Source: Bispira polyomma (Eukaryota). From it: DNA of 64,000 nucleotides. The stretch's first letter is position 1, and every line of letters starts with the position of its first letter. Of the stretch, positions 58,246 to 62,848 are shown in pieces. The stretch is from contig OZ287750.1 of the NCBI GenBank assembly GCA_965649765.1, forward strand, positions 49,662,001 to 49,726,000. The letters run 5' to 3'. A program made the position numbers and the translations under genes. Under the pieces are notes generated by a model that saw only the letters and a program-made list of their open reading frames with translations, had not been told where the DNA came from and did not search any database.

Positions 58246-61200
58246 TTATTCAGTCTGCCATTCTTTAAAGAAGTCATTTCCTTTGTCATCTACAACTATA
58301 AATGCTGGGAAATCCTCTACTTCTACTCTCCAAATAGCCTCCATCCCTACAACAAAATTATACATTTAAAACCAGGTTTAAGCAGGTTTACAGTTGTTCA
58401 CTTACATGATACAACAAATAAGTAGTACTTTTTATTTTAGACTACCTGGCCTAGAGACTTTCGGAATAGGAACTAGATGGGACGCATCGTGTGCATGTAT
58501 CATTCCTTTATCATAGAAATGTTGATACATAAATTGTCTATCGATAGCATATTTCACCTTGGGGCAAGACTTGTACAAAATTTTAATGGTATTTTTAAGT
58601 TAATATGTTTTATTAATAAAAAAGAAACAATTTTAAGTCAATTCTTACTTGAAAACAATTTAGTGGTACAGACTACCTGTTTTGTTCGGGCAGATTTTGT
58701 CGTTTTGAAAAAAAAAATTCAGTTTCTTACCAAGTGTCGATATTGGCGGCTATTGAACTAATTACTCCGTGCGTAAATTACAAACTCTTTGGTTTTAGAT
58801 ATGTTAATAAATTCAAAAACTCTTCACTTGCAATTTTGTTCATCTTTGATTGTAAATTGAAACATGCAAATTCCTTATAATTTAATCCATGAGAACTGAA
58901 AATCACTGAATTAGTACAGAGTGAAAATTATGCAAAGTACCTAAGCATGAAATTTTGTGAAGAAATGTGCAGTTGTTTATATGGGCAGAAACTGTTTTAT
59001 GATAACTGCTACTGCGATCATCTTTTTTTGGTCTAATTGGGCCCCAAACAAAACCAATCCGAAGCGATCTATTCTCAGAATAAACCTATGTATAAAATTT
59101 GGAGAAAATAGCTGCAGTACTTTACCTTCAAAAAGCAAATTTGGACAGCAAAACCATAGTGATAAAAGAGCTTACCGAGCTCGGGATACTCCAATACTTC
59201 AACTTTCTTGATGCAGTGCTGAGCTAATACTGCTGCTGGACCACCAATAGAACCCAGGTAGAACCCTTTATGTTTCTTACACGCCTTTGTGACCTACAAA
59301 TACACAACTGCAAGGTGCAGCTTCCTACTGCAAAGACTACAAAATCCTCTGCTATTAGCTCGCTTAAATCAATCACTCTTGCTTCATATATTTACAGAAT
59401 ATTTTTCTGAGCAGTGCACATATAATAATGAAACTGAAAAATTTATGAAAAAGTCAAATGCCACATCAAGCATTATCATTGAGGAACTATAATTTGAATA
59501 AATCCGTATACACACAGATACAGTAAGTTATACTACAAATACCACAAGTATGCAGTGAACAAAAATCACAACAGTGTACAAATTATAGCCACACCTGTAT
59601 TTGTAAGATGACATGAAACCAATATGGACAAAATTAAGAAATTACCCAGAAACTAGAGAAGAAAGTTTTGTTTAATAATGGGTCATTTAAGGAAATACCA
59701 CAGTAGGCAGTCTTTATAATATGTAAATAAAGTCTGAGGGTTTATTTGGAGATTGAGGAACAGTTCTCTCATGTAAAGAACGGGTACCTGCCGGTGCTTG
59801 ACCAGCACCCATCCATTATTTCACCAAAAGCCTGTCCTTTAATTGACAAATAAGGTACACCCTTACAGACTTAATTCCTATACTTTTGAGAACATAATGA
59901 GTTTAAGCATAAAACTCCATTTAACTATAAACCCTGGAAATATACCATTTTGCTCCTGTTTCCTTTAGCTAACATCACCATACTGCCCCCTGCTTCTTGA
60001 AACTGGTCCACATAGGAATCCATTCTGCCTGCAGTAGTTGGACCAAAGGAACCACTGGCATAACCCTACAATTACACAGTAAAGCAATCGAGACTTCCGG
60101 CCAAAGTGTTACATTCCCAAACTAGATGTCACACTGGGCTCTCATATCCACTGTGACACCATCTCCTATATAATACATTAACTGACTACCTTTTTTTAAA
60201 TTCTAGACATTCCTACAAATGGCTACATGGTACAGAAATTGTTCCATAATTCCCATTCACAGGAATTGTTCCATAATTACCATTTACAATGTTTATAAAA
60301 GTGGTTAGCCCCAAGTCAACTAATATTTAAAATAGGTTTACTGGTTTCCAGATGAAAAAACAATACATTTTTATAATTTTACAAGTGGCATAAAAAAGTA
60401 CTAAAATTCATATCTTCACAAAACTTCTAGTCTTCTTTACAAAAATAATATCTTCTGTTATTTATTTCAAAGATACAATATTTGACGTGTTACACTTATA
60501 AGTTGCCATGGTCCGTTATTTCTGTGGATTTGACACAATGTGCAATTAGGTTACAATAGTCTCTCACTTGTGGAGTTTTTCTGTTTTAACTTAATCTACA
60601 ACTATACTACCAGTCTCCTACAACTCTACAGAAGGGACCTCAGTGGTGTAGAGGTAATACTCTCATCTCCCACCTCTGTGGTCATGGGTTTGAGTCTCAG
60701 TCATAACATGAACATGGGAAAGTTGGTAGTAGACTTGCTAACAGCCAATGGTCTGTGGTTCAGAAATTAACTACCCTCTGTTCTGCTTTCCTCTACTAAT
60801 AAACTGCCCATTGTAATATTACATTCAGTTGTTGAAAACCAAAATAAATCAATAAATCCCACCTCTGGGGTTTTGGCTGGACCAGCATAATAGACTGGAT
60901 GGTTCATCATGTATTCTGGCATCCCCTGGCCACTGTCCAGCCTCTCCTTGAGTTTAGCATGTGCTATATCTCTGGCCACCACTAAGGTACCGGACAAACT
61001 CAACCGTGTACGGATGGGGTATTTGCTCAGCTCGGCCAGCATATCCTTCATGGGTCTGTTCAGATCAACCTACAAATTCATGAGGGGTTCTATTAATCTA
61101 AGTTTAAACTTCGCATTCAAAAATAACTGTTTTTTCACAAAAATACATACAAAATGATTATTTAAATATATTTCCGACCAAGTATTCCTTAAGTAACTTT

Positions 61201-62848
61201 AGGGATTGTCGACCATTACTAAAACCACAATTTATACTACAACATCAATGACTGTTGATAATACTTTTACAGGGTAACTTTTATTATCCAAACATGTTGA
61301 GAGGGTAAGATTTTGTTGATATAATAGATGACATATTTTGGTACATCAGGCTACGGCACCCTTCACCATGTGAAGCGTGAAAGGGAGTTACGCCCCTTGC
61401 CGCCGGATGCTACGGGGTGGGTTAACATCCAGTCTAGTTGCTTGCTATTAACCCTCTACCCTTACAATCTTGCTATGCCCATGGACTTTACGATTGGATC
61501 ACTGATTCCGCTGTTGCGCTTTAGAAGATGCCTAGCATCAATAAAGCGCATTAAAAATACATAATAATAATAACATTAAAAGAGTGAAATTGAGTTCATA
61601 AGACCAGATATTCTCATCATAGACGTTTGGATGCTGGAGGTTCTACTGTATTTTCTTTACCTTCAATACTTCCCCACCTAGCTGAGAGTCGTCTATTTCT
61701 GGCATGTACTTGGAAGGATCGGCCTCCAGTTGCTCTAAGAAAACACCTTCGGAAGTAATCTTAGCTTTTGCCTAAATTACAAAATACTGTTGATTTTTTT
61801 TTGTAATTTGCAGAGAAAAATATCAGCACATATTACCCAGTAATCAATCTTATTTACTATTGTGGCCTATTTTTCCCTTTTCACAATCAAATACAGTCAC
61901 TTTAGCAATTAAGAAAATGTATAAGAGACAAACAAAGAACAGAATTTATTTGACACCACGTACAACAAAATTTTTATATATACAGAGGATTACTCTGGCA
62001 TTTCATGTAATTTTAAATTTCCTAAATAACACATTTTGGCCTTTTTCAACGGAGATAATAGCACAAGCAATTTCAAACAATACATATCCCTTCAAACTAC
62101 AAGCTGTTCTGTGGAATAAATAGGACTATTTTTAAGTTTGTTTGAGTTTACATCACATTAAACATCTTTGGTCATATTGAGACAGCCAGATTTATTGGTG
62201 GAGGAGATCAGTACTATTTGTAGTGCAAACCATTGACCTATAGCAAATGCCAGGCAAACTTTCCCACAAGCTAAAAGCAATGGGAATCGATTTAAATGTT
62301 GTCAGAGGTGAGAGACCTAATTACATCAAAGGAGACATGTATATCCAGGAGGCCTCTGCAGCAGAGAGCAGCCCCATATAATCACTAAACCAAGTGTACT
62401 AAAACTTCAAAGAGAAATTAAAATCTTGTAATGCGCCATCCCAGATACTAAATGTGCTATTTTATATACCCTGTCATGAAATTTGAAGTTTGAGAAAGCA
62501 CAGTGATATAGTGTTCTTAGTTTACTTAAACAAAATTAAAATTAGTCATGACTAATCGAGATTGGATATTGGTTCGAATAACAGGTCATTTGTTCCAGAG
62601 ATCTAGCAGGGTATGTAGGGCTGCAGAAGATCAGTAATGTAAGTGTGAGCTTCATACCTGTCTGTCTGCTGAGCAGGACACTCCAATCCCCACAGGACAA
62701 GAGGCTCCATGTCTGGGTAATCTCACAACACGCACATCATGGCAGAAGTACTTGCCCCCAAACTGAGCCCCAATCCCAGAACTCTGGGTCATTTCAAACA
62801 CTTTCTGCTCTAAGTCCAGATCACGGAATGCTCGGCCATGTTCATTGC
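58246..62848 (-). CDS. fumA: Class I (4Fe-4S, FumA/FumB-like) fumarate hydratase, last six exons: complement join(58246..58346,59176..59293,59946..60065,60863..61069,61661..61771,62658..62848); 5' exons outside window
   Basis: [10 protein letters not shown]...[63 protein letters not shown]...[13 protein letters not shown]...[28 protein letters not shown]...MLAKGNRS|...[12 protein letters not shown]...[32 protein letters not shown]. All GT-AG, phases consistent, no stops. Confidence 0.96.
60633..60857 (+). mobile_element. Decayed tRNA-derived SINE in fumarase intron, abutting the donor site
   Basis: cagtggtgtagaggta...gggtttgagtctc...gggaaagttggtagt...tttcctc...gttgttgaaaaccaaaataaatcaataaat. 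Confidence 0.65.
61430..61573 (+). mobile_element. L2-type 3' end with (TAA)n tail in fumarase intron
   Basis: ttgcgctttaga...taaagcgcattaaaaatacataataataataa stem-loop/tail, similar to the L2 tail at 31578-31640. Confidence 0.55.
62130..62340 (-). mobile_element. Decayed V-type SINE
   Basis: Reverse complement of the SINE body: tctctcacctctg...gtgggaaagtttgcc...ctcctccaccaataaatctgg...gatgtaaaactcaaacaaac. Confidence 0.6.

Follow-up and report, generated by a model that had tools for sequence, protein, structure and literature searches.

The window analysed here, a 64,000-nucleotide stretch of Bispira polyomma DNA (G000:C3:49662001-49726000, within a 104-Mb contig of a 1.04-Gb genome assembled into 75 contigs), contains on its minus strand the 3' part of a gene which, as read from its sequence, is an intact one-chain class I ([4Fe-4S]) fumarate hydratase (FH). 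The complete gene model comprises 13 exons over 13.2 kb and encodes 574 amino acids with no internal stop; all 12 introns have GT-AG ends, and the frame is open throughout, ending in TAA. Positions are given in window numbering, continued past 64000 for the upstream exons, and 49,662,000 has to be added to obtain the position in the contig.

Gene structure and class assignment

Exons 8 to 13 lie in the window and code for residues 293-574 of the protein, with AG/GT at every junction. Exon 8 (62848-62658), whose acceptor is at 62848, matches PF05681 (E 2e-18) and carries His339 and the third cluster ligand, Cys351, within SCSADR. It is followed by exon 9 (61771-61661), located by tblastn and coding for the inter-domain linker, and by exon 10 (61069-60863), which contains the ARD motif (Arg426), matches PF05683 (E 2e-22) and aligns directly to the Leishmania FH structures. 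Exon 11 (60065-59946) includes GPTTAGRM, with the predicted catalytic base Thr472 and with Arg476, as well as KGNR (Lys496), the roles of these residues being assigned by homology to Leishmania FH. Exon 12 (59293-59176) was placed by tblastn and the splice model, and the last exon, 13 (58346-58246), matches orthologues at 88-97% in tblastn and ends with TAA at 58248-58246. The likely 3' untranslated region covers 57269..58245 on the same strand, in which a motif scan gave AATAAA at 57471, 57335 and 57269 as candidate signals. The first-pass annotation had described six clean GT-AG exons encoding the C-terminal half of the enzyme, and this description stands: its limits coincide exactly with the exon-8 acceptor and with the end of the stop codon at 58246, and the four motifs that it had named, KGNR among them, are all found in the protein.

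Seven further coding exons were recovered just outside the window (G000:C3:49726141-49733399) when 50 kb of adjoining DNA were inspected by motif scan and tblastn; all are on the minus strand and undisrupted, a point on which the idea of an intact gene depended. These are exon 1 (71399-71225), with the start codon and the putative presequence, exon 2 (70760-70633), exon 3 (69766-69628), with Cys138 and Asp140, exon 4 (68815-68715), exon 5 (67997-67886), exon 6 (67417-67323) and exon 7 (64267-64141), with Cys257. Intron 7, of 1,292 bp in total, occupies 62849..64000 in the window and continues beyond its end. When an 83%-identical orthologue (P0047) was searched against the whole genome, 13 matches were obtained, one for each exon, and because every one of them falls at this locus, class I fumarase can be taken as single-copy in the 1.04-Gb genome. 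Exons 1-8 were compared with three contig sets of a single study, which look DNA-like: the depth of unique sequence is alike over exons and introns, and a 5,059-bp contig spans exons 1-6 in two of the three runs. These sets may be the assembly's own source and are not counted as independent.

The assignment to class I is based on several lines of evidence. In a Pfam scan, the five fumarase exons tested all exceeded the curated cut-off, exons 3, 7 and 8 matching PF05681 (Fumerase) and exons 10 and 11 matching PF05683 (Fumerase_C), so that a single chain of 574 aa holds the N-terminal and the C-terminal domain; the scanned exons match class I families only, and not the iron-independent class II with its Lyase_1 fold. 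The three cysteines expected to bind the cluster, Cys138, Cys257 and Cys351, are present with a spacing of 119 and 94 residues, the two that had still to be located by the first-pass annotation being those of exons 3 and 7. The same spacing separates the ligands C105, C224 and C318 of Escherichia coli FumA, as given in PMC13655608, and Cys133, Cys252 and Cys346 of Leishmania FH (10.1101/2022.09.03.506457). The latter work also describes Asp135-His334 as the acid and Thr467-Arg421-Arg471 as the base of the Leishmania enzyme, to which Asp140-His339 and Thr472-Arg426-Arg476 correspond here when counted through the alignment of P0047 to 5l2r. Ten ligand or active-site positions (C138, Q139, D140, R178, G221, C257, C351, R426, T472 and R476) are invariant in the 60 named animal and the 15 named bacterial homologues compared, and Thr473 is replaced by Ser in one animal homologue.

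Among characterised enzymes, the class I FH of Leishmania major (PDB 5l2r, 6mso) is a single-chain [4Fe-4S] enzyme whose ligands and catalytic residues correspond to those of the window protein, and P0047 aligns to it over 518 residues (E 3e-232). The two systems differ in their complement of genes, kinetoplastids being listed with class I only, as mitochondrial and cytosolic copies (10.1101/158956), whereas each of the two classes is represented by one gene in this animal. FumA and FumB of E. coli belong to the same family and show equal cysteine spacing, but they have neither presequence nor introns. Moreover, the aerobic and anaerobic fumarase roles in E. coli come from two regulated paralogues, while the class I gene of this genome is a single copy.

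The first 35 amino acids of the protein include 6 R/K and no D/E and would form an amphipathic helix. A basic N-terminal extension of 20-62 aa is found in 56 of the 60 named animal proteins, as compared with 3-13 aa in bacteria, and the four animal proteins without it look like 5'-truncated gene models. Taking into account that this N-terminus is basic, acid-free and amphipathic, and that the extension is common to 56 of the 60 animal proteins, import of the enzyme into mitochondria appears likely; the mitochondrial presequence sought by the first-pass annotation is thus matched in composition. In a eukaryote survey, class I, and not class II, is predicted to be mitochondrial in many of the organisms where both classes occur (10.1101/158956).

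Host context and distribution among animals

The introns of the gene contain host repeats, as had been claimed. An interspersed element of 221 bp, SINE-like by eye, lies in intron 10 (60630..60850, plus strand) and has at least 43 matches, itself included, on 10 contigs (40 of 1,134 candidates scored), the other copies being 71-87% identical among the matches listed; this element may be a tRNA-type short interspersed nuclear element (SINE). When compared with 174 kb of DNA, six of the 12 introns were found to match elsewhere. Contamination, which the first-pass annotation had also discounted, is excluded because the gene has spliced introns and host repeats, is located in a 104-Mb contig and adjoins a spliced eukaryotic gene, that of CENP-S. 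A contaminant, a recent bacterial transfer or a pseudogene could draw on the 66-73% identity to bacterial FumA-type proteins, but 12 spliceosomal introns, host repeats, a chromosome-scale contig, a eukaryotic neighbour, a presequence-like N-terminus, the nesting among animals described below and an intact frame leave this explanation with virtually no probability. Contamination and recent bacterial transfer were rejected on the grounds of introns, host repeats, contig scale, neighbour and tree position.

The neighbouring CENP-S (MHF1) gene, at 53636-54570 on the plus strand, is convergent with the fumarase gene and has three exons visible by eye, the first of which matches PF15630 (E 2e-16). 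Between both genes there is a tandem array at 55811-56850, with a 145-bp unit in about 6.6 copies (86% matches), and a piece related to it sits in fumarase intron 12. Intron 6 contains a very high-copy repeat of about 1.8 kb with internal tandem units (G000:C3:49726945-49728750), close copies of which are found within the COQ2 locus and upstream of the class II fumarase gene.

Orthologues were sought with P0047 as the query, and the counts of named orthologues refer to the best 120 of 7,997 scored proteins, of which 60 carry an organism name, with phylum labels assigned by us. All 60 are animals, from at least 11 phyla: 26 come from molluscs, 8 from echinoderms, 7 from flatworms, 4 from annelids, 4 from amphioxus rows, 3 from hemichordates, 2 each from nemerteans, rotifers and placozoans, and 1 each from a priapulid and a bryozoan. 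No vertebrate, arthropod, nematode or cnidarian name appears among these best 120, which, being a ranked list, is not proof of absence. Identity of the window protein is 71-80% with the named animal proteins and 66-73% with the 15 named bacterial ones used; its closest named matches, among those listed, are from annelids and molluscs, which by themselves would indicate that the host is probably a lophotrochozoan.

Genes annotated as 'fumarate hydratase class I, aerobic-like' and their orthologues exist in Paralvinella, Aplysia, Mya, Crassostrea, Lineus, Diadema, Branchiostoma, Trichoplax and others (NCBI/UniRef), and many of the 60 named proteins bear that label. Like the window protein, their products are mostly of 565-580 aa, with two Pfam domains and a basic extension, and form one clade; no structural difference from them was found, these orthologues being known from database annotation alone. 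The window gene is, then, a further orthologue of an invertebrate gene that is ordinary and has been annotated before, and the rarity in animals proposed by the first-pass annotation does not survive the presence of at least 60 named orthologues in at least 11 phyla, echinoderms, hemichordates, amphioxus and placozoans included. That annotation had itself allowed that wide occurrence across the clade would reduce the novelty of the gene and, as far as distribution is concerned, this is the case. In earlier literature, class I FH was catalogued in multicellular eukaryotes, usually alongside class II (10.1101/158956, a 2017 preprint), and PMC13655608, a 2026 survey, reports it in 81 of 1,277 animal proteomes. 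The Fasciola genome paper describes class I FH in trematodes and terms it Platyhelminthes-specific (PMC5257007). This trematode enzyme (K01676; Fasciola and other flukes) is orthologous to that of the window, which is 78% identical to the Trichobilharzia protein, and it likewise coexists with class II, but the Platyhelminthes-specific label is contradicted by an orthologue list of at least 11 phyla.

In a FastTree analysis of 204 of 232 proteins (those below 490 aa having been dropped), the window protein falls within an animal group of 121 rows with support 100, and a quick IQ-TREE analysis of 46 rows separates 31 animal from 15 bacterial rows (SH-aLRT 99). The partner of the window protein in the trees, weakly supported (80-83), is a single transcript, and a bryozoan and annelids are placed close by. 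Of the phylogeny with bacteria, protists and animals that had been proposed, one animal clade as against the sampled bacteria was therefore obtained, the protists not being among the named rows. Insertions in the gene models of Lymnaea (a snail) and Schistosoma bovis (a fluke) coincide with intron 7, a weak hint that intron positions may be shared among animal class I genes.

Class II fumarase and rhodoquinone-related genes in the same genome

A multi-exon class II fumarase gene occupies a separate locus (G000:C2:58320606-58328427), and the class I enzyme is thus a second fumarase, as had been suggested. Upstream, neither tblastn of 8.6 kb with class II proteins of full length nor ATG-to-donor scans of 8.6 and then 28.6 kb gave a convincing candidate for the first class II exon. 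Two CCAAT boxes and a YY1-like motif (G000:C2:58317420-58317520), some 3 kb ahead of the first class II exon that can be recognised, could represent a promoter, as judged by eye. Further upstream (G000:C2:58303700-58309700) there are open frames of 685 aa on the minus strand and of 304 and 342 aa on the plus strand, which by eye resemble pieces of reverse transcriptase elements of the long interspersed nuclear element (LINE) type.

The genome also contains a COQ2 gene with tandem e- and a-type exons on the plus strand, located at G000:C1:84332794-84332924 (131 nt, Leu/Ser) and 84335701-84335834 (134 nt, Phe/Ala); the e-type exon lies first and is one codon shorter, and both have the same phase. 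Tan et al. (PMC7434440) describe the swap of Leu/Ser for Phe204/Ala243 as the mark of the rhodoquinone-form exon, which is alternatively spliced in Caenorhabditis elegans, and an annelid genome preprint considers only the first COQ2 site as reliable (10.1101/2024.06.25.600561). Both diagnostic sites have the expected residues in this genome, the alternation of exons being read from DNA. In a host outside the annelids, molluscs, flatworms and nematodes, such a pair would widen the range over which the rhodoquinone exon is known. An acetate:succinate CoA-transferase-like gene (acetyl-CoA hydrolase/transferase, PF13336) gives three exon matches at G000:C3:34017959-34019797 (plus strand), and a kynureninase-like gene gives six at G000:C11:11380790-11404137 (minus strand). 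Judging from these genes, this animal can probably run rhodoquinone-linked fumarate reduction, and malate dismutation is plausible here because an e-type COQ2 exon and kynureninase-like and acetate:succinate CoA-transferase-like genes are all present. The rhodoquinone side of the first-pass annotation is in this way supported by a COQ2 with a rhodoquinone-type alternative exon in the same genome, but the link that it drew specifically to hypoxia-tolerant lophotrochozoans is not; 23 of the 60 named orthologues come from phyla without described rhodoquinone, such as those of sea urchins, amphioxus and Trichoplax.

Role of the class I enzyme

Taken together, it seems fairly probable that the gene is an intact, single-copy nuclear class I FH, likely mitochondrial and likely inherited from an early animal ancestor, which is kept beside class II. 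The best reading of the sequence evidence is that it would be a general matrix fumarase used in both directions, with a housekeeping function and not a hypoxia speciality. According to this proposal, the basic, acid-free N-terminal residues (about 35) would act as a cleaved presequence leading to import into the matrix, where a [4Fe-4S] cluster would be inserted, with Cys138, Cys257 and Cys351 holding three irons and the fourth iron binding the substrate. Thr472, with Arg426 and Arg476, would be the base and Asp140, with His339, the acid, as in Leishmania FH. In the aerobic tricarboxylic acid (TCA) cycle the class I enzyme would convert fumarate to malate, and under anoxia malate to fumarate, feeding rhodoquinone-linked fumarate reduction; since the reaction is reversible, the same enzyme would serve both. 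The absence of class I from vertebrates and the usual models would then be a secondary loss.

The first-pass annotation had proposed instead that class I is an anaerobic isozyme, forming fumarate from malate when oxygen falls, with class II left for the aerobic TCA cycle, in a manner comparable to FumB and FumC of E. coli. FUM-1 of C. elegans, relevant to this idea, is an enzyme that we take to be class II. The malate-to-fumarate step is assigned to FUM-1 in that nematode (PMC8659336), which suggests that the dismutation pathway can probably do without class I, and no nematode appears among the 60 named orthologues (again not proof of absence). In some tapeworms only class I is listed (10.1101/158956), and there it must do general duty because no other fumarase class is present. 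These two points, together with the 23 of 60 orthologues from phyla without described rhodoquinone, point to a general rather than a specifically anaerobic role, and a dedicated isozyme is considered unlikely, even though the e-type COQ2 exon and the acetate:succinate CoA-transferase-like and kynureninase-like genes, the oxygen sensitivity of the class I cluster (10.1101/158956, PMC13655608) and the dismutation role suggested for class I FH in trematodes (PMC5257007) all speak for it. A split by compartment, in which class I would be the sole mitochondrial fumarase and class II would attend in cytosol and nucleus to fumarate from the urea and purine cycles and to DNA-damage signalling, agrees with the frequent mitochondrial prediction for class I where both classes are present (10.1101/158956) and with the class II protein of the clam Ruditapes, of 472 aa, which has only 12 residues ahead of the conserved start in the one protein seen. 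However, amphioxus has class I and yet its class II protein has a presequence-like extension of 48 aa, short class II forms in vertebrates also arise from second start codons (PMC13655608), and the scans to 28.6 kb upstream gave no first class II exon in this genome; such a split is considered slightly less likely still. Retention for a side substrate, namely the clearing of C5 dicarboxylates poorly handled by class II, would account for keeping class I beside class II regardless of oxygen, and class I enzymes are stated to be promiscuous, converting mesaconate to (S)-citramalate and accepting D-tartrate (10.1101/158956); but animals and bacteria do not differ in the ten ligand and active-site positions named above, which give no sign of a shift in specificity, and this explanation is highly improbable.

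Several points weigh against a general matrix enzyme of ancient animal inheritance. Molluscs, annelids and flatworms, all three of them phyla in which rhodoquinone is known to be made, contribute as many as 37 of the 60 named orthologues, as a dedicated anaerobic isozyme would lead one to expect, and the number of phyla in which rhodoquinone has been looked for may be small. The class II protein of amphioxus bears a presequence-like extension as well, so that the matrix can house two fumarases, and class I would then be kept for no obvious reason. The trees were built without named protist, cnidarian or sponge rows, none being named in the two class I protein searches, and with the bacteria closest to one exon, so that they show separation from the sampled bacteria and not a deep origin. 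Animal phyla are only partly recovered within the gene tree (for instance, Owenia appears among molluscs), one insertion in amphioxus, at residue 168, has no counterpart among the introns of the window gene, and the survey in PMC13655608 calls class I patchy and argues for multiple transfers into eukaryotes. Finally, the gene was read from genomic sequence, and its localisation was judged from N-terminal composition.

Animal fumarase is treated as class II in textbooks, and the literature searched, with most subscription journals outside its reach, yielded no report on how class I FH of any free-living animal behaves as an enzyme or where in the cell it is found. The comparative value of the gene lies in the picture of one animal clade, spanning at least 11 phyla and with a conserved mitochondrial-type presequence, as opposed to the flatworm-specific and the patchy, transfer-derived accounts. 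If class I FH were the main matrix fumarase, this would change how hypoxia-reoxygenation injury is read in bivalves and worms, and would temper the idea of class I inhibitors as parasite-specific beyond the vertebrate host. A bolder possibility, which we regard as rather unlikely, is that the placozoan-bilaterian ancestor relied on an oxygen-labile Fe-S fumarase for its mitochondrial TCA cycle and that most invertebrate phyla still do so, with many spiralians having a cytosolic class II, and that the derived state is the one seen in vertebrates, insects and nematodes. Were this true, animal class I would be one ancient inheritance and not the result of scattered transfers, and molluscs, annelids and echinoderms would have, at the step between fumarate and malate, an unrecognised switch sensitive to oxygen and reactive oxygen species.

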